A stretch of 64,000 bases of DNA from Octopus sinensis (taxonomy: Eukaryota), in contig NC_043006.1 of NCBI RefSeq assembly GCF_006345805.1, forward strand, positions 94,178,001-94,242,000. The letters are read 5' to 3'. The position numbers and the translations under genes are program-made. Of the stretch, positions 9,590 to 63,176 are shown in pieces. The notes beneath the pieces were generated by a model. That model was not told the origin of the DNA. It did not search any database and saw only the letters and a list, made by a program, of their open reading frames with translations. Position 1 is the stretch's first letter; every line of letters starts with the position of its first letter.

Positions 9590-9778
9590 GTTAATCCAAA
9601 CATGAAAACACAAAGAGAAAACACAACAACGCGAGGACATGGAACAAATATAGTATTATTGGACGCTCAGGAAAGAAGGAGGGCATAACGTTTCGAGCGG
9701 AGCTCTTCGTCGGAAACATAGGAGAAGGAAAGATCCAGAGAAGGGGAAAAAAATCGCCAACGGTACACACGCGGTCAC
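9590..9778 (-). mobile_element. Short (TA)n-inserted repeat family (other copies 24977-25168, 30825-31012)
   Basis: Three homologous copies gttaatccaaac...acgcgaggacgtggaacaaata...aaaatcgccaacggtacacacgcggtcac, all bounded by (TA)n; minus strand has CCGACGAA-gagc(tcc)gctc-GAAACGTTA. Confidence 0.75.
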
Positions 9779-10112: not shown

Positions 10113-10390
10113 TATATATATCTAGAATCTATATATACTATATATATATATATCTATATATATATATATAATTAATCAATATAGGGTGGCCAAAAAAATT
10201 TTGGAGAATTTTTTTGCCACCAGCGGCCTAGTGGGAAAAAATAAATAGTCATAGACCATTTTTAAGTTCAACTCAACAATCAAGGAACGGCCATAATAGA
10301 CCATTCACCCACTAGAAATAACGCCAAGCTTCAACCGCAAATAAAAATCAATCCGTAAACAGGAGAAAATTTAAAAAACATTTACCCTGT

Positions 10391-10494
10391 AATCTTATAC
10401 GATGCACCGTTTCATCTGCTGTTTAATGGCAAACTAACCTGATTAAATTAAATCAGCCATCTTCCATAGGCCCTCAGATTCTTCAGTAAGAAAT
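10391..10494 (-). ncRNA. Hammerhead ribozyme, family A minus copy
   Basis: Reverse complement of the 10984-11090 motif with a few small indels. Confidence 0.75.
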
Positions 10495-10983
10495 AGCCCA
10501 AGTCGGAACAGATATTTACACGAGGCATTTCCGACCCTGCAAGGTAATATCTGACCTAAAATTTTCAAATCATCGCACTCGCGCCAAATTTATCGGCAGC
10601 AAATAAATATAAGCCGTCGATTCCATTACGGAATTAACCAGAAAATTCATAAATAATCAATATAGGGTGGCAAAAAAAATTTTGTAGAATTTTTTTGCCA
10701 CCAGCGGCCTAGTGGGAAAAATTAAATAGTCATAGACCATTTTTAAGGTTCAACATCAACAATCAAGGAACGGCCATAATAGGCCATTCACCCACTAGAA
10801 ATAACAGCCAAAGCTTCAACCGCAAATAAAAATCAATTCCGTAAACAGGAGAAAATTAAAAAAACATTTACCCTGTAATTTCTTATACGATGCACCGTTT
10901 CATCTGCTGTTTAATGGCAAACTAACCTGATTAAATTAATCAGGGTCGGAAATGCTCGTGTAATATCTGTTCCGACTTGGGCT

Positions 10984-11090
10984 ATTTCTTACTGAAGAAT
11001 CTGAGGGCCTATGGAAGATTGGCTTGATTTAATTTAATCAGGTTAGTTTGCCATTAAACAGCAGATGAAACGGTGCATCGTATAAGAAAT
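10984..11090 (+). ncRNA. Type-I hammerhead ribozyme with extended stem II (family A); predicted cleavage after A11082
   Basis: atttctta-CTGAAGA-atctg-[58-nt insert with hairpin]-cagat-GAAAC-ggtgcatc-GTA-taagaaat: all three stems pair and the core is canonical. Confidence 0.85.
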
Positions 11091-11466
11091 TAGGGTAAAT
11101 GTTTTTTAATTTTCTCCTGTTTACGGAATGATTTTTATTTGCGGTTGAAGCTTGGCTGTTATTTCTAGTGGGTGAATGGCCTATTATGGCCGTTCTTGAT
11201 TGTTGATGTTGAACTTAAAAATGGTCTATGACTATTTAATTTTTTCCCACTAGGCCGCTGGTGGCAAAAAAATTCTACAAAATTTTTTTTGCCACCCTAT
11301 ATTGATTAATTATGAATTTTCTGGTTAATTCCGTAATGGAATCGACGGCTTATATTTATTTGCTGCGATAAATTTGGCGCGAGTGCGATGATTTGAAAAT
11401 TTTAGGTCAGATATTACCTTGCAGGGTCGGAAATGCCTCGTGTAAATATCTGTTCCGACTTGGGCT

Positions 11467-11575
11467 ATTTCTTACTGAGGAATCTGAGGGCCTATGGAAG
11501 ATTGGCTTGATTTAATTTCAGGTTAGGTTAGTTTGCCATTAAACAGCAGATGAAACGGTGCATCGTATAAGAAAT
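11467..11575 (+). ncRNA. Hammerhead ribozyme, family A second plus copy; predicted cleavage after A11567
   Basis: Same motif with CTGAGGA core, 485 nt downstream of the first. Confidence 0.8.
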
Positions 11576-11883
11576 TACAGGGTAAATGTTTTTTAATTTT
11601 CTCCTGTTACGGAATTGATTTTTATTTGCAGTTGAAGCTTGGCTGTTATTTCTAGTGGGGAATGGCCTATTATGGCCGTTCCTTGTTGTTGATGTATATA
11701 ATATATATATATATATATAATATATATACCATATATATATATATGCATGCATGAATATATATATATATATACATGTATGCATTTTTGCAAGTATGTATGT
11801 ATATATATATATATACATACATACAGAAACATACATACAAATAAATGTATCTATATGAGATGCATTGTTCGTAAGTTTGTATG

Positions 11884-23984: not shown

Positions 23985-24287
23985 AGCTAAGTTCAACTCG
24001 TCTAAGTCGAAAGACGCCTGTTGTTATGTCCTGTTATATTTATATTCGTGTAACATCTTCCGTTTTTCTGTCCTTGTTTCGTATACACCCGATTCTTTCC
24101 AAGAAATCTAATGCTCGTAGCTTAGTTTTTCCTTGGGGCTGGCCAGATCGGAGCAATCTCAAGATTAATCAGCCGAAATTGCGAGGGTGATCCGGTTCTT
24201 GAATGATGATTAGAGGCTTCGAATGACCCGTCCGTGTTTTTTGTATCGTCTATTTGAATGTTTTGCGTTCTTGTCCCATTTTGTATT
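23985..24287 (+). mobile_element. Dispersed repeat 3' end abutting a microsatellite (related copies 30415-30580 minus, 40713-40830 minus)
   Basis: Shared atcagccgaaattg...gatccggttcttga.tga.gatt.gaggcttcgaatg.cccgtcc...cgttcttgtccca.tttgtatt. Confidence 0.6.
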
Positions 24288-24307
24288 ATATATATATATT
24301 ATATATA

Positions 24308-24963
24308 TATAACAATTTAGGAATGGCCTAAACAGGCCATTCGTCCACCAGAAAGAGCAGCCAGAACTCCAACCGCCAAGTAGTGTAATTCGGAAATAAG
24401 GTGAAAATTTAAAAACATTTACCCTAATTCATCTTTTATACGATGCATCGTTTCAGTGTCTTTAATGATAGACCAGCTTAATTAAATTAAATTAAGCTAG
24501 TCTACCATAGGTCACACTTCATCAGTAAAAGAAACCTGGGAGAGACGGACATACACGAGGCGACTGTATCAATGCCTCGGGAATGTCTGTCTTAAAATTT
24601 TCAAGACCAACGCATTCGCGCCAAACTTATCGGCAGCAAATATAAACTGCCGATTCCATCTCAGAATTAGTCAGAAAATTATCAATTAATCAATTTAGGG
24701 TAGCAAAAATTCAGTAAAAATTTATCGTTACCAGCGGCCTAGTGGAAAAGAGAAAATAGTCAAAGACTAAATATGTATAAAATAACAATTTAGGAATGGC
24801 CTAAACAGGCCATTCGTCCACAGAAAGAGCAGCCAGAACTCCAACCGCCAAGTAGTGTAATTCGGAAATAAGGTGAAAATTTAAAAACATTTACCCTAAT
24901 TCATCTTTTATACGATGCATCGTTTCAGTGTCTTAATGATAGACCAGCTTAATTAAATTAAAT
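24308..24963 (-). mobile_element. Retrozyme-like tandem unit (family B, ~472-474-bp period, about 1.4 copies) in (TA)n; diverged relative of family A
   Basis: ataacaatttaggaatggcc at 24309 and 24782; blocks shared with family A (aaaaacatttaccct, cgcgccaaa.ttatcggcagcaaat, ccagcggcctagtgg). Confidence 0.8.
24432..24532 (-). ncRNA. Type-I hammerhead ribozyme with extended stem II (family B); predicted cleavage after 24439
   Basis: Minus: tctttta-CTGATGA-agtgt-[19-bp hairpin]-acact-GAAAC-gatgcatc-GTA-taaaaga. Confidence 0.9.
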
Positions 24964-25214
24964 ATATATATATATAGTCAATCCAATCAAGAACAAGCAA
25001 GAAAAATACAAGAACGTGAGGACGTGGAACAAATACTGTGTTACTGGGCGTTCAGGAAAGGAAAGGAAAGAAAAGAAAGAGGGCTTCACGTTTCATCAGA
25101 AATATAGAAAAAGTCAAAATTAGGGAAGACGGAGAAAGAAAATCGCCAACGATACACACGCGGTCACATTTTGAAATATATATATATATATATATATATA
25201 ACCCTAACCCTTTT

Positions 25215-29285: not shown

Positions 29286-29380
<95 letters not shown>

Positions 29381-29490
29381 ATGTATATATGTACAGCAAA
29401 ATTTAGATTGAGATGAATATAGTACTTAAGTTAAAGGCACCAGAATTTTGTATGGTATTATCCATATAAATCAAATGGGGTGATTATATG

Positions 29491-29576
29491 GTGGCTGAAG
29501 ATTGCTCGACATTTTAAAACTGATGTAATACTTACAGTGTTTAATAAAATGAAGTAGCATGAAACAATTGTACTAC
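29491..29576 (+). ncRNA. Type-I hammerhead with extended stem II (family C), in an element at about 29395-29612
   Basis: gtgg-CTGAAGA-ttgct-[insert]-agcat-GAAAC-aatt-GTA-ctac; first stem-II pair mismatched. Confidence 0.65.
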
Positions 29577-29633
29577 ACTACCTTGGATATCCTTGTTGCT
29601 TATTTTGATTATGTATATATGTATATTATATAT

Positions 29634-29703
<70 letters not shown>

Positions 29704-29907
29704 AATATAACACACTTAATTTCATATATATATATATATATGAAATTATGTGTGTTATATATACACCAAATACTTAACATTTGTGCACGCACCCTTATAT
29801 ATAATTTAAAACAATAAGTGTTTGTCTGTCAATCTATCTATCTATCTGTGTTTGTTTGTGTGTGTATGTAGACCTTCCTACATACATATCGAGGCCTATC
29901 ATATACT

Positions 29908-29960
<53 letters not shown>

Positions 29961-30593
29961 CCGTGTGTATATTGCGTAGGAAAGGTATTTTCGGGCGCCT
30001 GATGAGCATTTTTATGTAATTATGACACCACTGCAAGAAGCGATTAGTTGCCTGTTGCATACAACAACTGATTACATTCCATTATACCCTACCATATCGG
30101 TAGTGAGTGCCGTCATATTTCATGCACATTAACCTCATACCCGTTAATACTCACCCACACATGCACATGTATACTCTGGGGAAAATGCATCGAAACTCTT
30201 AAGTAATTAAATTCGGATCGCACCGTTTGCATCTGTTTTAACAACTATGTAACATTTTGCTAATCAGGTCCTATTTACTAATTTTGCTAATCAGGTCCTA
30301 TTTACATAGGGTGCTTAAAGGGTTATTTGCACTTTATTTACTCTTTATTTTCCTTCGTTATTTATGTGTGTGTGTGTATGTGTGTTTATCTGTGTGTGTG
30401 TATGTAAATAAATAATGAAGAAACGGAACAAGAACGTAACGGACGACAATAAAAACCATTCAGACAGAATGACAATACAAAGACGGGCAGGAACACCAGG
30501 ACGGAACATTCTTGGCTTTCTATTCATCAGTCAAGCATCCAATCATCATTACAGTTTCGGCCTGTTATTTGAGACTATATGTATCAAACACAC

Positions 30594-30635
<42 letters not shown>

Positions 30636-30662
30636 AAACACACCCATATATATATATATATA

Positions 30663-30696
<34 letters not shown>

Positions 30697-30717
30697 GCAT
30701 CTGTGCGTATATACGTG

Positions 30718-30814
<97 letters not shown>

Positions 30815-31056
30815 TATATATATAGTTAATCCAAACAAGAAAACACAAAAAAACACAACAACGCGAGGACGTGGAACAAATATAGTATTATTGGACGCTC
30901 AGGAAAGAAGGGAAGAAGGAGGGTGTAACGTTTCGAGCGGAGCTCTTCGTCGGAAACATAGGAGAAGGAAATATCCCGAGAAGGGAAGACAGAGGAAAAA
31001 AATCGACAACGGTATATATATACTCAAAAATAAGCAACAAGAATGATTCCGGTCAT

Positions 31057-31142
31057 TTGGTACAATTGTTTCATACTACAACATTTTATTAAACGCTGTA
31101 AATATTACAGCAGATTTAAGATGCTGAGTATTCTTCAGCCAA
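31057..31142 (-). ncRNA. Type-I hammerhead with extended stem II (family C), at the 3' end of an element at about 31020-31750
   Basis: Minus: ttgg-CTGAAGA-atact-[...gctgtaa(tat)ttacagc...]-agtat-GAAAC-aatt-GTA-ccaa. Confidence 0.8.
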
Positions 31143-32563
31143 TTTATATAGGTTTTCCAATAATATAAAAGCTTTCAAATCAAGTAGTAACATTTTAGGG
31201 AAGGTAAATATACAGATAAAGATGTAGATATAAATTTAGGGACATATGCGGTTGTGTAGTTCAGATGCTGACTGACCAAAACTCTGCTTGCAACAGACTG
31301 CTATAAGAATTTTTTAGTTTTAGGAATGAGGGTAAGGGAAGGTTTTAGAATACCATAAAAGGAATTCAAGTTGGTTGTAGAAAGAGGAGGAATTCAGAAT
31401 GCCATAAAAGAATTCAGGTTGTCACTAAACAAAAAGCCAATTTTTTTATGTGGTGAGAAGAAAACTAGGTCAAGTGTCGAGAGGTCATTAAATTCTTTAC
31501 AAAGGGTAAGGGAAACAAAACTATCACTTATTTTTAGTAGGTATCGTATTTTATAACTGGGAGAATAGCTTTAAATTTTAAAACTAGATTAGATTTAGGG
31601 AAAGTTCCAAATTCAAGATTACAGTGAAGTTTTTCTAGTCATCTATGAAAAACTGGAATTGGGATTATCTTGCATACATTCCACAACTCGAACTTTTAAA
31701 TACTTTAAATAAAAAAATTTTTTAGTATTCCTATATTTTTCAAACTTTAACTTTTTAATATAATAATAATATGAAATATACTATATTAACCTTTAACATT
31801 CCCGGAAGGGAATAGGTGAAGAAAAAGTTCTTTCAAAGATAGGAGAATGCAAGAGGAGGTATGTGTGTGTGTAAGTGTGTATATGTGCGTGCGCGCAGGT
31901 CTGCGTGTGCGTGTGTGTGTATGTGTGCAATGATAACACGTGTGTGTGTGCGTGTGTGTGTGTGGTTGTGGCTGTTAATCTATGTGTGTGGTAGGGCTTA
32001 GTATTGTTTAAGGTCAAGGAAGAATGGATTAGGAGTGGCTCTTGTCTCTAAACCACCCATGTGGAAAAATGGTCAATGAAAGGTACTGATAGTTTGAAGT
32101 ATGTGTGTGTGTGCGTGTATGCATATGTATTGTGTGTGCGTTTTGTTTGTAGTGTGTGTGTGTGTGTGTGTGTGTATGCGTGTATTCGTGTGTGTATGCG
32201 TGTATTCGTGTGTGTATGCGTAGAGTTTGTGTGTGTGGCGAATAACTGCGCTATACTTTGTGTATGTGTGCGTGTGTTTGTATGTGCGTATACATATATG
32301 TATAATTGTGTGCGTGTATGTATGAGTGTGTGCCGTGTGTATGGGATGTATGTGTGGGTTCATTTGTGTGTGTGTGTCGTATGTGCGTGTAGTTGTGTGT
32401 GCGTGTATGTGTGCGTGTGTATGTGTGCGTGTGTATGCGTATGTGGGTGTACATACGTGTGTATATATATATATATATACACTCATTGCTATTTTCACCG
32501 TTTGAGAAGAGTATTAAGAATAATCTCGTTCGAGATTACAAACATCTTCGGCTAGTTTAACAT

Positions 32564-34074: not shown

Positions 34075-37000
34075 CAGGTCACTTTCGAGTGCTACTGGTA
34101 ACATGTAACCCAGAACAACCTGTTGCATGGTCGGGTTGTCGGCGACTAAACCGGTAACCCCACCAAGCTTGCTTGGTGAGGAGGGTGTTTATTGGACACC
34201 CTGCGGGATGAAAAACAAAACCCGTCAAAGGGCGGAGGAACTCTTGAGAGTCAACGGCCATCCAATAAATGTGTTTTTTTCTTCTTCTTAAGGCTTAAGG
34301 CTGTATCATGCGCGGGGACATAGAAATAATCGGACTGAATACCCGATCGCGCGGTTAAACCATTGTGAGTGAAGGACTCCTAGCCTTTGTTAGGGCAACC
34401 TTCTAGGAGAAGGTAACTGGGATAACTCTGACATAAAACTTGCGGCTCAGTGGTTACCGATGATGTTGACTTGTTCTTCTTTTCGGATTATGGCTGCTGT
34501 TGCTTAGTGAGTGGGATTGACTCAGTGCACAGCCTTTCCTCACTTTAAAAAAAATCTTTTCGCACAGGTATTGCATGATAACTACATTGGATTGATTAAA
34601 GTGATTAACTAATTCATGACTGTTGATAGTGCTGTGACTCTCAGCTGAATGGCTGACTGTAGCCTTAAAAAGCAAAAATCAATGATGTACCAAAACAGTA
34701 TAAAAATAAATGGCAAAAAGAATCTGGAACGACAGAACCACATCGCTGAAAGAGTCTGGCCCCAGGGGCTCCAGAGCATCACAATCTGAACCCGGCCGTC
34801 ATCATGCTACCTGTGATAGAACCAAAGAAATAATGAATATTGACTGTTGGAATGTACGGACACTGCTTGACCACAATCCTCTGATGTCCTGAAAGAAGGA
34901 CTGCGCTTGTTGCGAAGGAGCTTCAATGCTATGATCTGACATCATTGCTTTATCTAAGACGAGATTACCTGGAGATGGTCATCTTACAGAATCTTGTGGA
35001 AAATATATATTCTTCTGGAAAGGGAGAGATGAAGAGCTTAGAGGAGAAGCTGGAGTGGCATTTGCTGTTAAAACTACTCTTGTGGACAAGTTGGAAGAAT
35101 TCCCAATCGGAATTAACGAGCGTCTTATGTCCATGAGAATTCCTTTGGCTAAAGGAAATTATATGACCTTGGTGAGTGTGTATGCTCCAACTATGTGCTA
35201 TACTGATGACGAAAAACTTTCTTTCTACCATGCTTTGAAGGGCATTATAAGAAATATCCCTCGGGCAGACAAAGTCATTGTACTGGGTGACTTTAATGCT
35301 AGAGTGGGTAGGGATTTTAACACATGGACTGTAATTGGAAAGCATGGGGTGGGGAAATGTAATAGTAATGGCATGCTTTTGCTTCAGATGTGTGAGGAGT
35401 TGAGTCTGTGTGTTACCAATACCATGTTTCAACAAAAGAATAAGTTTAAGACTACATGGATGCACTCTGCATCTAAAGAATGGCATATTCTGGATTACAT
35501 CCTAGTTAGGGTGCGTGACAGACCAGGATGTGCAGTGTGTTCGTGTTCTTCGTGGAGCTGAGTGTTGACTGGCCACCGCCTAGTACGTGCAAAAGTGAAA
35601 ATTAGTCACAAACATAAAATCCGAGCTGCAGGGATGACCCTGCCTAAAAGACTGAATGTGATCGTCTTAGGTATAATAGTGGTGAAGAGAACTTTACGAG
35701 AGGAAATGAATGCTGCGATATTGGGGAGGATTGGCCGACCCTTAAAAAGTCAGTTTATGATATAGGCAAAAAAGTTCTGGGATTGATACAAAGAAAGCAT
35801 CAAGATTGGTTTAAAGAAAAAATGATGAACATATAGATGATTTATTGGCTGATAAAGACTACTTTGTCACGCTTTTGTCAGTAGTCACAGGAAAGGGAAG
35901 TGCTGCATAGGGAACTCAAGGACGTAAAATCACGTGTGAGGCAAAAGCTCTCTCATATGAGGAATACGTGGTGGAGTAAGAAGGCTGACGAGATACAGGC
36001 GGCATCAGATTCCAATAACACAAACTGTTGTATGGTCCTCTTGCGAGAAGTTTATGGACCGACATCTTCCCTGATGACACCATTCGAAGCAGGGATGGTA
36101 AAGAACCTCTTCGTGATTCACAAGGAATTCTGCAAAGGTGGCAAGAACACTTTGATGAACTTTTGAATCAGCAGTCTGTAGATAGTGAGGATTTTCTCAA
36201 TCTCATCCCTGGATTACCTGTGAAGGTCAGCACTCGCAGAACCACCAAAGTTGGAGAAGTTGCAATGGCTGTCTCAAGGTTGAATAATGGGGAAGTCTCC
36301 AGGTATGGATGGCATACATGCGGAGGTTGTTACAGCATGGTGGTGAGAAACTTCTGCAGAAACTTCACTCTTTGTTGGTAAGATATGGACTAGTGATCTG
36401 TACCTGAGGACGGAGAGTATGCAGTAATGGTGGTCCTGTATAAGGGAAAGGGCAACAGGAATGATTGTGTTAATTATAGGGGTGTATCATTGCGTCTGCT
36501 GTAGGAAAGGTTTATGCCGGATCTTCTGGATTGTCTGCTGAAATACATTGCAGATTGTGTTCTTCCAGAAAGTCGATCTGGCTTTCGTGTGGGACGGTGG
36601 CACTGCTGATTGATCTTTTCGCTTGACAGCTTCAGGAGAAGTGTGTGGAGCAGGGTCTGGATTTGTATCACGTTTTTGTCGATCTGACAAAAGCCTTTGA
36701 TACCGTCAATAGAAAAGCATTGTGGAAGTCCTCCAGAAACTTGGGTGTCCTGAAAAGTTCCTTGCTTTGGTTTAGGTCTTTCATGAAGACATGAATGGTA
36801 GGGTGAATGTTAGAGGGAAATGTCGGAGCTCATTTCAATCAAAATGGAATGAAACAGGGGATATTCTGGCACCGACCCTATTTTTCATATATTTCGCGAT
36901 GGTGTTCTGTATTGCATCAGAAATGCAGATACGGTGTTTACGTCCCTTATCGAACCTCTGGCAGCATATTTAATATCAAGCGCCTTGCTGCAAAAACAAA

Positions 37001-37975
37001 GATATTTACCTCTATCATAGAGACCTTTTGTATGCTGATGATTGTGAGCTAGTAGCACACACAGAGATTGATATGCAACACATTTGAATGCATTCTCTGA
37101 TGCTTGCACTGCCTTAGGATTGACAGTCAATCTCAAGAAAACTGTTGGTCATGCATCAACCTGCCCCTGGTAAGCAGTATAGTGTACCAAATCTATGTGA
37201 ATGGTAAACGACTTGATGTAGTCGATCAGTTTGTCTACCTGGGAAGCACTATTAATAGATGGCAATGTGGATGATGAAGTTCCATATAGAATTAGGAAAG
37301 CAAGTGTTGCTTTCGGAGGCTAGAAAAGCGCTTCTGGAGTCGGCAAGACATATCAGAAAGACAAAGATAAAGGTGTACAAGGCATTGTGCTCCCTTCTCT
37401 TCTCTTGCCTGCGAGACGTGGGTCACATATCGATACCACCTTAAACATCTGGAACATTTCCATCAGATGTGCCTCAGATGGATCTATAGCATTAAGTGGA
37501 AGGACCGCATCAGTGATCTTGAAATACTCGAAGGCTCTCGGTGTGTAAGTATAGAAGCTCTTGTGTTAAAGCAAAGGCTCAGATAGAGTGGTCATCTGGT
37601 CAGAATGAAGGATTCAAGGATGCCAAAACAAATCTTTTATGGGGTGTTAGCTAAAGGAGAACGATCTCCACATAAACCAAAAAAAAGAGGTATAAGGACT
37701 TGCTGAAGGCTTCCTTAAGAGATGCTTGCATCTCTCCTGACACATGGGAAGGCATAGCTATTGATCGTAGCAGGTGGAGAAGGATTGTGCATGAGGGGAC
37801 AGCCACATTTGAGAAATCTCGAGTTGCACATGAGAAAGTAAGGAGGGATGTCAGGAAGGGCATCGCTGTTAAACTTCCAGAAGGGAAGGGTCTTCCTTTG
37901 ATTCTGACATGCAATGTCTGTGCAAGACCATGCCTCAGTAAAGGTGGACTCATGAGTCATCTTCGTAGTCATAAA
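34075..37975 (+). mobile_element. Near full-length RTE-clade LINE, frameshifted (5' UTR, APE, RT, C-terminal C2H2 finger)
   Basis: WNVRTL, VSVYAPT, LGDFNARVG, TWMH..SK.WH.LDYILVR (APE); FVDLTKAFDTVNR, LYADD, YLGS (RT); CNVCARPCLSKGGLMSHLRSH. Confidence 0.95.
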
Positions 37976-38089
37976 ACGAGACAGATTTCAATAGGTTCAG
38001 CTAATTTTCTGCTATGTAAACAAACCAACACCGGTTCTCAAGAACTTGGATGGGGGGAAAACTACAAACACAGACACACGCACACATAC

Positions 38090-38262
38090 ATACATATGTA
38101 GAAATACGACGGAATTCCACACAGTTTCCGTTTACCAAATCCATTCTCAAGTCGGTCAAACTCAGGAATGTAGTAGAAAATACTTGTCTGAGGTGCCTCG
38201 CAGTGGAACCGAACTCGAAATCACATGGTTGCAAAGCGAGGTTCTTAACTACACAGCCATGT
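38090..38262 (-). mobile_element. tRNA/CORE-type SINE head
   Basis: Minus: atggctgtgtagttaagaa...ttcgagttcggttccactgcgaggcacc...gatttggtaaacggaaactg. Confidence 0.7.
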
Positions 38263-40660: not shown

Positions 40661-40880
40661 GTGGTGTGTGTGTGTGTGTGTGTGTTGTGTGTGTGTGTGT
40701 GAATGTTGAAAAAATACAAACTGGGACAAGAACGTGAAACATTTAGAGACGATACAAAAGCACGGACGGGACATTCGAAGCCTCCAATCTTCACTCAAGA
40801 ACCGGATCATCTTCACAATTTCGGCTGATTACACACACATACACATATGCATACATGCACACGCACACACACACATATAT

Positions 40881-52522: not shown

Positions 52523-54417
52523 CTATGTTTGACTATGCTTTACATTTGCACAAGCTGGCTCCAAGTCTCACCCAGAGACCTCAAGAGACAACAAGTTGGA
52601 AGTTCATGTTGGTGTTATGCCTAGGGTGCCATATATTTGGTTTTGTACTTAGTGTTGTATTAGTGAATGCCTAAAAAACCATACGAAAATTATGTTTGTT
52701 TTAAAACTTGAGATCACATAGAAAGTATTTTGCGTAGGATATGAGCACTTCCCATGAGCACTATCTTTTGAATTTCTGCCATTTTGGGGTTTCCTGGTAT
52801 CTGAGTTAGGTAGCAATCAGCCCCTTTTGCTATCATTCCCAGGGCACCTATGACAAACAGGTACTGTTTTTGTCTTCGGGTTCCACATTTTGCTGATTTC
52901 TATTTCAAGATCTTTATATTTGCTCCGTTTTTGGTAGGTCTTGACAGATACGTTTATATCGATTGGGACAGTCATATCAATGAGGAGGTATGTTTTTTGT
53001 CTAAAGTCTTTTACTATGATGTCTGGCCTATTCGCGTCTATCTTTCTGTCTGTTTGAATGGTGAAGTTCCATAGGAGTGAAATGTGGTCATTTTCAAACA
53101 CTGGAGGTGGTTTGTGTTCCCACAAGTTTTTATCAAAGTCCAGGCTTTTGCAAATTACCCAGTGAATATATTGTGTAGCTCTATCATGCCTGTTGAGATA
53201 CTCTGTAGGTGCAAGAAGACTGCACTTGGAGATAACATGATCAATGGTTTTATTTTGTTGTTGACATACACGACATGTTGGGCTACTGCCGTTCTTTAAT
53301 ATGTTGGCCTGGTAATTTCTTGTAGGTAGGCATTGATCTTGAGCTGCTATGATAAATCCTTGTTTCAGATTTTAAGCCAGAGGCCATTAGCCATTGATGG
53401 GTCAGGGCTTTGTCAACATCTGCATTATTCGCTCTCTTTTGGTATTTGCCATTGAGAGGTTTTTCTTGTCATTCAGAATATCTAAGGCAGAAGTTATAGC
53501 ACGGGTTTTCATGCGCTTAGCTTTTTCTGTGCTTGTTTCTTGTATGTCTAATTCCGAAATTTGTTGTATTCGGAATTCACTTAGATATTCCTTTTCTTGG
53601 CAGATAAAGTCGTTCTGTATCTGCCTTAGGGTGGTGCATTCAATGCATTGTCAACAGTTTTCGTATTTTTCTGTCAAGATTACACATTTCAGTTATTGAC
53701 CAGTTAACGATATTGAAACTGTAAGTCACGACTGATGTGGCTAAAGCATTGATCGCTTCGATCCTGTTTCTCGCATTCAGCTCTGTCTTGAGTATTGCTC
53801 TTACTCTGCGATAACATTCTCTCCTGATCCTTTCCTTCATCACTGAATGCCTTATTCCATCCCCTTCAATTACCCCTAGGTAGCTCTCTGCTGGGTCTAA
53901 CTCTTTTATAACATTCTGCTGGTCAAGGTTAACGTTAGATGTTTCTGTCATTTTTCCTTTGATAAAGGTAGCTTTTGCACATTTTTCGAGGCCAAATTGC
54001 ATTCTGATGTCATCGCTGAATTGTTTAAGCCCTTGAGATTTTGGCCATTTTTTTGCAAAGACCTTTAAATCATCCATGTAAATGAGATGATTTATATTTT
54101 TATCCAACATTTTATATCCGTACTGTGTGTCATTGAGCAATTTTGAGAGGGGTATCAAGGCTAAACAAAAGAGGAGTGGTGATAGTGAGTCGCCCTCGAA
54201 AATGCCACAAGAAATGTTTACATCACCAGCATTTAGAGATTCATCGTCACTGTTCAAAGTTAGTTTGGTTCTCCATGATCTCATACTTACAGACAAAAAG
54301 TTTCGCAGAGTAGGCGCTATTTTATACATTTCCAGGCATTTCTTTATTCAGCTATGTGATAGGCTATCAAAAGCCTTTTTATAGTCTATCCAGGCTATTG
54401 ATAAGTTTTTGTGTCGA
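52523..54417 (-). mobile_element. 5'-truncated Dong/R4-type non-LTR retrotransposon (RT, CCHC, restriction-like endonuclease), copy 1
   Basis: AWIDYKKAFDS, GIFEGDSLSPLLF, HLIYMDDLK, CRVC..HVISKC, NRPDII...LIDMTVP...KYKDL; (TAA)n on both sides. Confidence 0.93.
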
Positions 54418-54540
54418 TATTATTATTATTATTTTATTATTATTATTATTTTCATCATTATTATTATTATTATTATTATATTATTATTATTATTATTATT
54501 ATTTTCATTATTATTATTTTCATTATTATTATTATTATTA

Positions 54541-54577
<37 letters not shown>

Positions 54578-54582
54578 GTTAT
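54418..54582. repeat. (TAA)n microsatellite spacer between Dong/R4 copies
   Basis: Directly visible tatt/tta repeat array. Confidence 0.95.
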
Positions 54583-56742
54583 TCAGTAGTTGTATTTTTA
54601 TAGCGTGCTTTCACTTCACTACCGAGTGCTGCTCTGTGTGCCTTGGGTATGTGCTGTGACTTGTTGTGATGCTCTGATGGTTATTGTATGGAAAGTGTTC
54701 TGCGTAGGATGTGTGCAGTGTCTAGTAGTGCAGTTTTCTGTATGTTATATGTGTTTGTAAGTCCTGGTGTTTTTGTTATGTATTTGCTTGAATATTTTTT
54801 ATCATGCCTAATGCACCTACTATGATAGGAATTGTTTCTATTTTTATATTTCACATTCTGGTTACCTCTATTTCCAGGTCTTCGTATTTTGAAAGTTTCT
54901 CCATTTCTTTTAGAGACACGTTGTCATCTGCTGGTATTGATACATCAATTAGAAAACATTTTTTTCTTCATAATCTCTGACAACTATATCTGGTCTGTTG
55001 GCCTTAATTTCTCTATCTGTGTATATTGGCATATCCCAAAGTATGGTTGCTTTCTCGTTTTATGTGACCTTTTCTGGTGTGTGCCTATAACATCTTTTTT
55101 CTGTTGTTATTCCATAATGTTGGCATAGCTTCCAGTGTATGTAGGTCCCAACTCTGTCGTGTCTGTGAATATATTCCTTCTTAGCCAGGACTGGGCAGCC
55201 AGAGATAATATGATTTATTGTTTCTTGTCCACCTCCACATATTCTGCAGTTACTTGTTACGATTCTTTTCCATGTTTTTGGTAATTTCTGGTGGAGAGGC
55301 TTTGGTCTTGTGCTGCAATTAAAAATCCCTCTGTCTCTGCTTTGAGTCCTGAGCTTCTCAACCATTGCTGGGATTTTTCTTTGTCTATTTCTTTTGCATT
55401 TAGTTTAGTCCAGTATTTGCCATGAAGGGGCTTTTCTTGCCATCGTTTTATCATGGTTCGTTGCTGTTCTAGTTTTAGTTTGGATTTCATTTGTTTTATA
55501 GCTTTTGTTGTTTCTTCATCTTCTTCTTCTTCATATTTGTTAGGTGGTATGATTTCTTGTTTGTATTTGTTAGCTTTCTTAAATACTGAGAACAGTTTTT
55601 TGTTTTGCTCGTGTTTTGCCGCTATTTGTATCAGTTTTCCTTCCTTCTGAAGTAGATATTTTTGCAGTCCTATGGTGGCTATTTTATAGTAGTTTTTTGC
55701 AGCTGTATAAGGCCTCTACCACCTTCTATACGTTGTATATATAGTCTTTCTATGTCAGATTTTGGGTGATTCATCCTAGATCCTGTCATTATTTTTCTTG
55801 TTTTCCTATCTATTTTGGTCAGTTCATTTAGTGTCCAGTTAAGGATATTGTAGCTGTAACTTATAACTGGGAGGGCTAAAGTGTTAATACCTATTATTTT
55901 GTTTTTAGCATTGAGCTCTGTTTTTAGTATTGATCTAACTCGTCTATAATATTCTTTTTTCTATTTTCTCTTTCATTTGTGTGTGTTGTGTCTTATCTAG
56001 TTCATTGATTTCTAAGTATTTGTAAGTTTGGCTTTGGTCTAATTCCCTTATTTCATTGGCTTTATCTAGTGTGATGTTGCTACTCTTAACTAGTTTTCCT
56101 CTTTTCAGGGTTACTTTGGCACATTTTTCTAATCCAAATTTCATATCTATTTCTTTGGTAAATCCATGAACTGTCTTTAGTAGTGTTTCCAGCTGTTTGT
56201 CATTTGTAGCGTATAGTTTTAGGTCATCCATATATAAAAGGTGGCTGATCGTTTTGCCGTAACATTTATATCCGCATCCAGTTCTATTTAGCATATCAGA
56301 TAGAGGTGACAGTGCCAAGCAGAAAAGGAGAGGAGAGAGCGTATCTCCCTGGAATATTCCTCTTCTAATGGGGATGGCTTTAGTTTTCACGAGTCCCTCT
56401 TTTGTTTGGAGCTGTAGCACTGTTTGCCATTTATTCATAGAGTGTCCTATGTATTTTATAATTGTTGGTGCGACTTTGTTCATGGCTAGTGTTTCGAGGA
56501 TCCATGTGTGGGGGATGCTATCAAACGCCTTCCTGTAGTCGATCCAGGCCATACTGAGGCCTTTCTTCTTTCTGTGGCTGTCTTTAGTTATGGATTTATT
56601 GATCAATAGTTGATCTTTACAGCCATATGAGCCTTTGCGGCATCCTTTCTGCTCTTCTGGAAACAAACTGTTTTCGTCCAGGTGCTTGTTTAATCTTTGT
56701 GATATTACTGCAGTAAATGCTTTGTACATTGTAGGGAGACAG

Positions 56743-56746
<4 letters not shown>
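54583..56746 (-). mobile_element. 5'-truncated Dong/R4-type non-LTR retrotransposon, copy 2 (different subfamily)
   Basis: ITCLPTMYK, EEQKGC, WIDYRKAFDSIPH, GIFQGDTLSPLLF, HLLYMDDLK, CRICG..ETINHIISGC; (TAA)n on both sides. Confidence 0.95.
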
Positions 56747-56821
<75 letters not shown>

Positions 56822-56834
56822 CTACTACTACTAC

Positions 56835-56871
<37 letters not shown>

Positions 56872-57054
56872 TCTACTCTAGGCACAAGGCCTTGAAAATT
56901 TTGGGGGAAGGGAGCTAGTCGATTACATCGACCCCAGTGTGTAACTGGTACTTATTTCATCGACCTCCGCGGGTTTTGCACTTAAAACCTAAAGATAGAC
57001 AATACGGCTTTAACCGTTTAGTTCGGTGTGCGAACGATTCTGTCAGCTCACCTT
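56872..57054 (-). mobile_element. Deu/Nin-type SINE, diverged
   Basis: Minus: ggtgagctgacagaatcgttcgcac...ggtcgatgaaataagtaccagttacacactggggtcgatgtaatcgact. Confidence 0.7.
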
Positions 57055-62925: not shown

Positions 62926-63176
62926 TTTACAATATTTACATTTGACGGATATTTGTCCTCATCTTGTTTGTTGTTAACACAATGTTTCGGCTGATATACT
63001 CTCCAGTCTTCATCGGGTGTCTTGTGGAAATTTCGAACCTGGGTTCTCTTTCCTAGGGTATGAAGGCTAGAGGGTATATTAGCCGAAACGTTGTATTAAC
63101 AGCAAACAGGATGAGGATAAATATCTGTCAAATGTAAATAATATACATAATTCCTCATCTCTTAAAAATAGAACTG
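62926..63176. mobile_element. Fold-back Penelope-type non-autonomous element with 13-bp TSD and minimal HHR motifs
   Basis: Arms about 62933-63018 and 63060-63140 are inverted; tgtaagga(c/g)tgaa at 62913-62925 and 63177-63189; arm consensus gatgaa-ggct..agcc-GAAACGTT-gtgtt. Confidence 0.75.

Follow-up and report, generated by a model that had tools for sequence, protein, structure and literature searches.

The 64,000-nt stretch of the Octopus sinensis genome analysed here (RefSeq assembly GCF_006345805.1, contig NC_043006.1, positions 94,178,001–94,242,000; hereafter the window, numbered from its first letter) is AT-rich and filled with microsatellites and retroelement remnants. It contains two copies of a repeat, family C, each carrying a type I hammerhead ribozyme motif whose two core halves are separated by 59 nt. 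The motif of copy 1 lies on the plus strand at 29491–29576, with its core at 29495–29501 and 29561–29572 (29495–29572 with the interval between the halves) and a predicted cut after A29572 of a GUA triplet. That of copy 2 lies on the minus strand at 31057–31142, with its core within 31061–31138 and a predicted cut between 31061 and 31060. Both motifs were recovered at the positions and strands given by a first-pass annotation made from the letters alone, and they align over 86 nt without a gap. Each reads CUGAAGA, 59 nt, GAAA-CAAUUG-UA, enclosed by a 4-bp stem I, and the conserved hammerhead core CUGANGA / GAAA / UH is complete in both. Three helices are possible, namely stem I of 4 bp, a proximal stem II of 4–5 bp and a stem III of 2 bp in a monomer or 8 bp in a dimer. 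Stem III is provided by the 8-nt self-complementary sequence ACAATTGT, identical in the two copies, so that positions 15.2–16.2 and loop 3 together form a palindrome. The pairings described earlier for stem I (gtgg/ctac versus ttgg/ccaa) and stem II (tgct/agca versus atact/agtat) are present in the sequence, as are, in both copies, the inner tgtaa/ttaca hairpin, the palindrome and a common tail motif.

Run over the window, a generic descriptor of type I hammerheads (at least 4 bp in each of stems I and II, spacer of 40–120 nt) matched six motifs with spacers of 59–70 nt, two of family C, three of a family A and one of a family B; it found no short-spacer type I motif in the window. The chance expectation for long-armed motifs was 0.01, and local shuffles gave no match in 198 of 200 cases and a single match in the other 2. 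Between the two family C copies, all 19 positions of core and stem III are identical, whereas the remaining sequence matches at 73 of 98 positions (Fisher p = 0.007); the core is therefore better conserved than its surroundings, contrary to the outcome that would have spoken against a ribozyme. An Rfam scan of the window returned no match at the gathering score. At E ≤ 10, the interval 29380–31900 gave 37 Rfam matches, none to a hammerhead family; the microRNA matches there all fall below the gathering score and lie within TA/TG microsatellites.

The extended stem II occupies 59 nt in each copy (29502–29560, plus strand; 31073–31131, minus strand), and that of copy 1 is predicted to fold as a long, imperfectly paired hairpin whose base carries a U-U mismatch. 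The predicted energies of the arms are −12.8 kcal/mol for copy 1 (z −3.0; 4 of 500 shuffles equally stable) and −16.6 kcal/mol for copy 2 (z −4.5; 1 of 500), while the fold energy of the whole motif with flanks is unremarkable (z −1.1 and −1.6). The greatest stability is predicted for proximal stem II, whose pairs have probabilities of 0.79–0.93 except at the U-U position. As a monomer hairpin, stem III is predicted not to form (pair probability 0.03–0.07), and between two molecules it is predicted to form an 8-bp duplex of −6.4 kcal/mol, in agreement with the proposal that the palindrome is suited to intermolecular pairing. On these models, family C is an intact type I hammerhead motif with stem II stretched into a predicted 59-nt hairpin, and its cleavage would likely require the pairing of two copies or the help of a protein. 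The two copies in the window were excluded as a cis ribozyme dimer: they lie on opposite strands, so a single transcript of both would give an antisense duplex (predicted at about −122 kcal/mol). Both copies are likely dead. A coding role for the family C arm was ruled out by stops in all three frames.

The first-pass annotation had described these stems as covarying and long-stem-II hammerheads as recurrent in this genome, with family C as a third family. Of the 32 pairs drawn, stem I and proximal stem II each contribute one that changes on both sides between copies 1 and 2, two pairs change on one side and six are broken in one copy. The covariation score was equalled by 127 of 500 shuffles, in a comparison of two decayed copies that has little power. 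A long stem II finds its strongest covariation support in the comparison of family A (10992) with family B (24439), in which four of five proximal stem II pairs are compensatory and 18 of 19 and 19 of 19 arm positions are paired although 9 differ. These arms also fold asymmetrically by strand (sense versus antisense, −24.4 versus −9.8 and −31.2 versus −21.9), and the hairpin of the family B arm reaches z −8.8. Families A and B are about 72% alike and therefore represent one lineage; the recurrence of the long stem II is borne out within the window by all six matches, and the number of long-armed lineages in the window is two rather than three. A search with a model built from both family C copies found no further family C copy in the window. 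It scored family B at E 0.23 and two family A copies at E 3.2–3.5, too weakly to demonstrate homology of family C to A and B.

Other copies of family C were seen through the contigs of 4 of 24 listed public runs (X1, X2, X11 and X16). Relative to the unique flank, summed contig depth over the motif of copy 1 was about 8,900-fold (X1) and 15,900-fold (X2), and over that of copy 2 about 4,800-fold (X1) and 1,700-fold (X2). Depth fell about 8- to 18-fold from bin 31154–31237 to bin 31238–31321 and was 34–340 times flank beyond 31238 (X1, X2). Summed depth of this kind is not equal to copy number and was read as thousands, declining toward the 5' side; family C is accordingly highly repeated, with roughly thousands of copies. 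Contigs of two runs that we guess to be RNA cover both copies and give no evidence either way on expression.

These contigs revealed the anatomy of copy 1. Its left flank consists of (TATC)n followed by a short (TA)n (29286–29394), and its right flank of (TA)n (29610–29741), so that TA repeats border it on both outer sides. Between the left flank and the hammerhead lies a piece of about 95 nt (29395–29488, minus strand) that is inverted relative to the hammerhead and has a depth of about 10,200 (X1) and 7,500 (X2) times flank. Contig joints in X1, X2 and X11 connect 29470–29488 to 31018–31027, where the right end of the piece meets the reverse complement of the tail, and the loose ends behind 29488 continue into the same tail sequence, again in reverse complement (22 contigs in X2, 3 in X16). 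Contigs over the hammerhead of copy 1, in contrast, carry other sequence upstream (54 in X2). The 95-nt piece therefore lies directly 3' of the 40-nt tail in other copies and represents a 3' extension, or long tail, of family C. In copy 1, the break between the inverted extension and the hammerhead shows a 3-nt overlap.

Copy 2 extends over 31020–31796. Its tail (31020–31056, minus strand) ends at the same point as that of copy 1 and contains an extra base (place 31026) that is absent from some other copies. The shared tail of about 40 nt described earlier is thus present in both copies, but it is not the sole 3' end of the family, with about 95 nt more elsewhere. Nor does the tail of copy 2 run into a long (TA)n; lying within another element, it abuts no more than about four TA units. 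Upstream of the hammerhead lies a decayed body (31143–31650, minus strand), and the drop in depth near 31237, about 218 bp from the tail end, may be the boundary of a pseudo-long terminal repeat (pseudo-LTR). A segment on the opposite strand (31652–31796, plus strand) is probably an inverted 5' piece of copy 2; its joint, 31650–31796, was seen in one X11 contig with 121 letters on the short side, among the joints listed. The copy 2 body also contains a short internal direct duplication (31360–31420). Contigs of X11 and X16 omit 65 nt at 31464–31530, and one X1 contig is without 31072–31169, that is, most of the hammerhead.

Copy 2 is flanked by a further repeat, family D, whose 3' part lies at 30825–31014 (minus strand, with a short variant hammerhead at 30926) and which, according to contig joints, continues past copy 2 at 31797–31860 (minus strand). 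Joints that restore the host (31016–31805, 31005–31817 and 30955–31802) were found in one contig each, and two other family D copies in the window extend beyond the break point; copy 2 is therefore nested in a family D element, which lost about 20–25 nt at the insertion. With respect to a (TA)n insertion preference, copy 2 sits at a TA step inside family D and copy 1 between TA repeats. The convergent layout noted earlier is correct in that the two motifs lie on opposite strands, but it is a by-product of the inversion of the hammerhead and tail in copy 1, the 3' parts of both insertions being on the minus strand. Taken together, the joints, loose ends and depth gradient show a 3' tail that may be present or absent, copies truncated at the 5' end and 5' pieces in inverted orientation, as in Penelope-like elements (PLEs).

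The hammerhead also contains a start codon. In copy 1, an ATG (29559–29561) at the 3' base of stem II, reaching into G12, leads a stretch of 18 open codons (29559–29612, plus strand) that passes through the cut site and the 40-nt tail and reads MKQLYYTTLDILVAYFDY. The ATG of copy 2 (31074–31072, minus strand) opens the same frame, which there gives 16 residues and is ended by the extra base missing from some other copies. To assess coding, the codon positions of five codons at the joint of tail and extension were counted by hand in six junction rows among those listed and both window copies: variation occurs at all 5 third positions but at 2 of the 10 other codon positions (p = 0.007; an earlier four-row count gave p = 0.002). 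The stem II ATG is likely the start of the open reading frame (ORF) of the element.

Similar arrangements are known from characterised elements. In the PLE Poseidon PAc of Anolis, the ORF starts in stem II, the cut lies 26 nt after the start codon, reverse transcription starts at two internal sites and cleavage is assisted by protein (PMC11167929). PAc and family C share a start codon in stem II, a cut site just downstream (predicted in family C), two internal 3' ends that define a tail and AT-rich targets. They differ in the tail (30–40 nt versus about 95 nt), in the place of the AUG (the start of stem II versus its 3' base) and in that activity is demonstrated for PAc, whereas family C is known from its sequence. 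In Penelope of Adineta, the pseudo-LTR holds the first 12 codons, the tail extends them and inverted pseudo-LTRs occur (PMC3846280); like PAc, it has two 3' ends within the frame opened by the AUG, as does family C.

The minimal hammerheads of metazoan PLEs (Cervera and de la Pena 2014, PMC4209133) resemble family C in being of type I, with a 4-bp stem I, a short palindromic stem III and many dispersed, truncated copies, including opposite-strand pairs 100–700 bp apart. They have a helix II of 6–8 bp with a G10.1-C11.1 pair and low activity as dimers. In family C, helix II instead takes up 59 nt (about 26 pairs), and A-U or U-U stands in place of the G10.1-C11.1 pair. Craig et al. (2021, PMC8557442) record inverted 5' pieces and (TA)n flanks as PLE traits; their PLE survey used a descriptor spacer of 7–17 nt and lists eight Naiad cases with a half core. 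Of the 26 rows of Hydra-clade hammerheads in their File S2, 14 have a U on either side of stem II, as in family C, and a missing G10.1-C11.1 pair is also common. Stem II reads tgcc/ggca in 8 of 26 rows, compared with tgct/agca in copy 1, and stem I atgg/ccat, compared with ttgg/ccaa in copy 2. That clade has a (TA)n insertion preference and one family in Octopus bimaculoides, whose listed motif is a different sequence; its loop 2 is at most 10 nt in the 26 rows, versus the 59-nt arm of family C. Its proteins are marked by RWK and DKT motifs, a CxCX5C linker and an endonuclease without CCHH; the window copies contain no readable ORF, and no Hydra-type protein could be demonstrated for them. A precedent for a long arm is provided by two rows of PLE-X hammerheads from Selaginella, with loop 2 of 29 and 35 nt, although these are plant elements without an endonuclease and, as judged by eye, the loop of PLE-X1_sMoe seems to be coding; the arm of family C is a predicted hairpin with stops in all three frames. 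Animal non-LTR retrozymes likewise have type I hammerheads with a 2-bp stem III and a tetraloop at very high copy number, and HHR_Amex2 of the axolotl shares the U-U at the helix II base with copy 1 (PMC7229834). Retrozymes are, however, tandem repeats of 170–400 nt expressed as circles, whereas the family C copies are single in the window and carry inverted pieces; octopus is not mentioned in the available part of that paper. Further context is given in PMC6765202 and PMC13725137.

The literature searches turned up no animal PLE hammerhead whose stem II measures 59–70 nt, although Lunse et al. (PMC5785218) or the alignment supplements of PMC4209133 could contain such variants. Identity of family C with Naiad_Obim, Naiad_Ovul or Hydra-1_Obim found no support, as the motifs searched have no exact occurrence in the supplement of PMC8557442, in which line breaks can hide matches. 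At least 119 metagenome loci match a loose family C pattern. Among the matches listed, none has blastn similarity to family C at E ≤ 0.01, and stems I and II reach at least 3 bp in 2 of 121, neither of which is like family C; a search of viral contigs gave no match.

These results make it probable that the window holds two truncated and rearranged copies of a highly repeated element, likely a Penelope-like pseudo-LTR, in which the 59-nt stem II is predicted to form one long hairpin and cutting would likely take place only as a dimer or with protein. Family C likely belongs to the PLEs, with reverse transcriptase (RT) and GIY-YIG domains undetected. In the mechanism that we propose, the long arm would be the first part to fold and would keep both halves of the core together; stem III, weak with its 2 bp, would meanwhile remain open. 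Because of the open stem III, a lone-copy transcript would stay mostly uncut, and the AUG at the base of stem II could be translated. Where tandem pseudo-LTRs lie on one transcript, or the protein of the element is present, two ACAAUUGU palindromes would pair; cleavage after GUA would then sever the AUG 14 nt into its frame and free a unit-length RNA. Reverse transcription may be primed on TA-rich nicks, with two internal start positions that lie about 54 and about 150 nt past the AUG, and priming at both sites in one event would produce the inverted layout of copy 1. Such two-site priming would resemble the twin priming of L1; among the papers listed in a literature search, none combined that term with pseudo-LTRs.

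Several observations weigh against this reading, the first of which concern the motif itself. Family C is not a canonical minimal hammerhead, as two defining features fail: its 59-nt spacer departs from the short-loop helix II of about 4–8 bp (descriptor spacer 7–17 nt), and the G10.1-C11.1 pair is missing, being A-U in copy 2 and U-U in copy 1. The minimum-energy fold of the whole motif at 86–106 nt is not the hammerhead. In the 21-pair extension of stem II there is no compensatory change and five pairs are broken in one copy, so family C alone does not prove that the arm is selected; in addition, the arm folds nearly as well in antisense as in sense (−12.8/−10.8 and −16.6/−15.8). The lack of compensation and the close energies are as expected if the arm is a neutral passenger of a PLE hammerhead, an inverted duplication in loop II that is now decaying and that is tolerated because such hammerheads lack a contact between loops I and II. 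Short-loop relatives with similar core flanks exist as well (PMC8557442). This is a serious alternative, although we lean against it: the arm is 59 nt long and free of gaps in both copies, the A/B lineage is also long-armed with pair-preserving changes and strong strand asymmetry, and the two decayed copies of family C offer low power for covariation.

The remaining points against a Penelope-like pseudo-LTR concern its coding capacity and extent. Right after the five counted codons, the frame is lost in two of the six junction rows and in copy 1; depth is no copy count; and the inverted 5' piece of copy 2 was seen in a single contig. The first-pass annotation had proposed extending the consensus from 31150–31750 and testing for an RT/GIY-YIG ORF; none could be demonstrated there, in copies that are short and decayed. 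For the region upstream of the copy 2 hammerhead, Pfam gave no family in any of the three minus-strand frames, phmmer no match in 1.84 billion proteins, and three homologue searches 0 of 10, 0 of 57 and no candidates, results that leave room for distant homology. Nine letter differences in other copies did not favour any single frame of the copy 2 body, and no tandem family C copy with an ORF, in which a pseudo-LTR would hold the first codons, was seen. A stretch at 31240–31300 looks GIY-YIG-like by eye, but its arginine is lost with the letter that other copies have at 31249. Stretches upstream of copy 2, this one among them, bear a tentative resemblance to the PLE linker and the end of GIY-YIG.

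The absence of protein matches and the 8- to 18-fold drop in depth would also fit a short non-autonomous hammerhead element of about 310–330 nt, retrozyme-like or similar to a short interspersed element, that is mobilised in trans by a Penelope-like protein and whose AT-rich upstream part and AUG frame are non-coding leftovers. The tandem units of families A and B, about 480 nt long, have no recognisable ORF either, and retrozymes have been proposed to be PLE derivatives (bioRxiv 10.64898/2026.07.22.740005). We regard this explanation as unlikely, as both family C copies are single rather than tandem, copy 2 has 650 nt of additional sequence repeated at 34–340 times flank depth, and the codon positions at the tail are biased. 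Less likely again is a motif that no longer cuts usefully and is retained as a protein-binding or translation-control fold round the start codon: minimal PLE hammerheads cleave poorly even as dimers (PMC4209133), PAc requires protein in order to cleave, and its insertion in vitro can proceed without that cleavage (PMC11167929), and position 11.1 is in both copies a U that belongs to the AUG, but the catalytic bases and the palindrome are complete in both copies, and the combination of a 2-bp stem III with U-U at the stem II base also occurs in an axolotl hammerhead whose cleavage reaches 22% in the monomer and is much greater in the dimer (PMC7229834).

The association of hammerheads with retroelements is itself already known; what is new is the long-armed structural form, an architecture common to two lineages and invisible to Rfam, together with the 95-nt tail, whose use would explain the inverted copy. 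On the preferred reading of family C as a Penelope-like element, we tentatively raise a broader idea, which we think rather improbable as a whole: that invertebrate PLEs include a hidden class in which at least two lineages, both present here, keep a stem II of 60–70 nt under selection as a functional arm, for dimer or protein docking by the start codon, in thousands of copies, and that some PLE families described as having no hammerhead or a half core carry working long-armed ones. Such a class would have been overlooked because published descriptors cap the spacer far below 60–70 nt. Since Rfam misses these motifs and spacers of 59–70 nt lie beyond the 7–17 nt of the survey, counts of ribozymes in invertebrate genomes may be underestimates, including calls that a hammerhead is absent. 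PLE hammerheads are known and their role is unsettled. With thousands of copies and an AUG within the ribozyme, family C lends itself to a simple test, provided by nature, of whether PLE RNA is turned by cleavage from a message into a template and of whether stem II can act as a docking arm; its two insertions would preserve the trace of two internal priming sites that served in a single event.

Other repeats were observed in the window. Family A (10171–11700) has three long-armed hammerheads, two on the plus strand, 483 nt apart, that could dimerise in cis and a third that is inverted; an inversion joint lies near 10939–10941, stem III is a 12-nt near-palindrome and there is no recognisable ORF. 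Family B (24300–24961) has a tandem unit of about 472 nt that is 72% like family A. The arm and tail motifs CTATGGAAGA and GGGTAAATG of both families (10992–11110 and 24410–24525) can also be recognised by eye, spaced differently, at the 3' ends that the supplement of PMC8557442 gives for Naiad_Obim and Naiad_Ovul, which hints at a possible link to Naiad. Family D is present at 9590–9778, 24977–25167 and 30825–31014, with a depth of about 70,000 times flank, and carries a variant core CCGACGA (C at position 4) with a 4-bp stem II at 9686 and 30926; another short variant hammerhead, with a CCGATGA core, lies at 62976 on the minus strand. Broken ORFs at 34935–38101 and 52817–56951 look like endonuclease and RT pieces of non-LTR retrotransposons. 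A further repeat at 30420–30570 has a depth of about 8,000–47,000 (X1/X2) and weak matches at 24172–24238 and 40764–40825, and the search with the family C model also found a long, perfect-looking inverted repeat with a 16-nt loop at 1028–1121.

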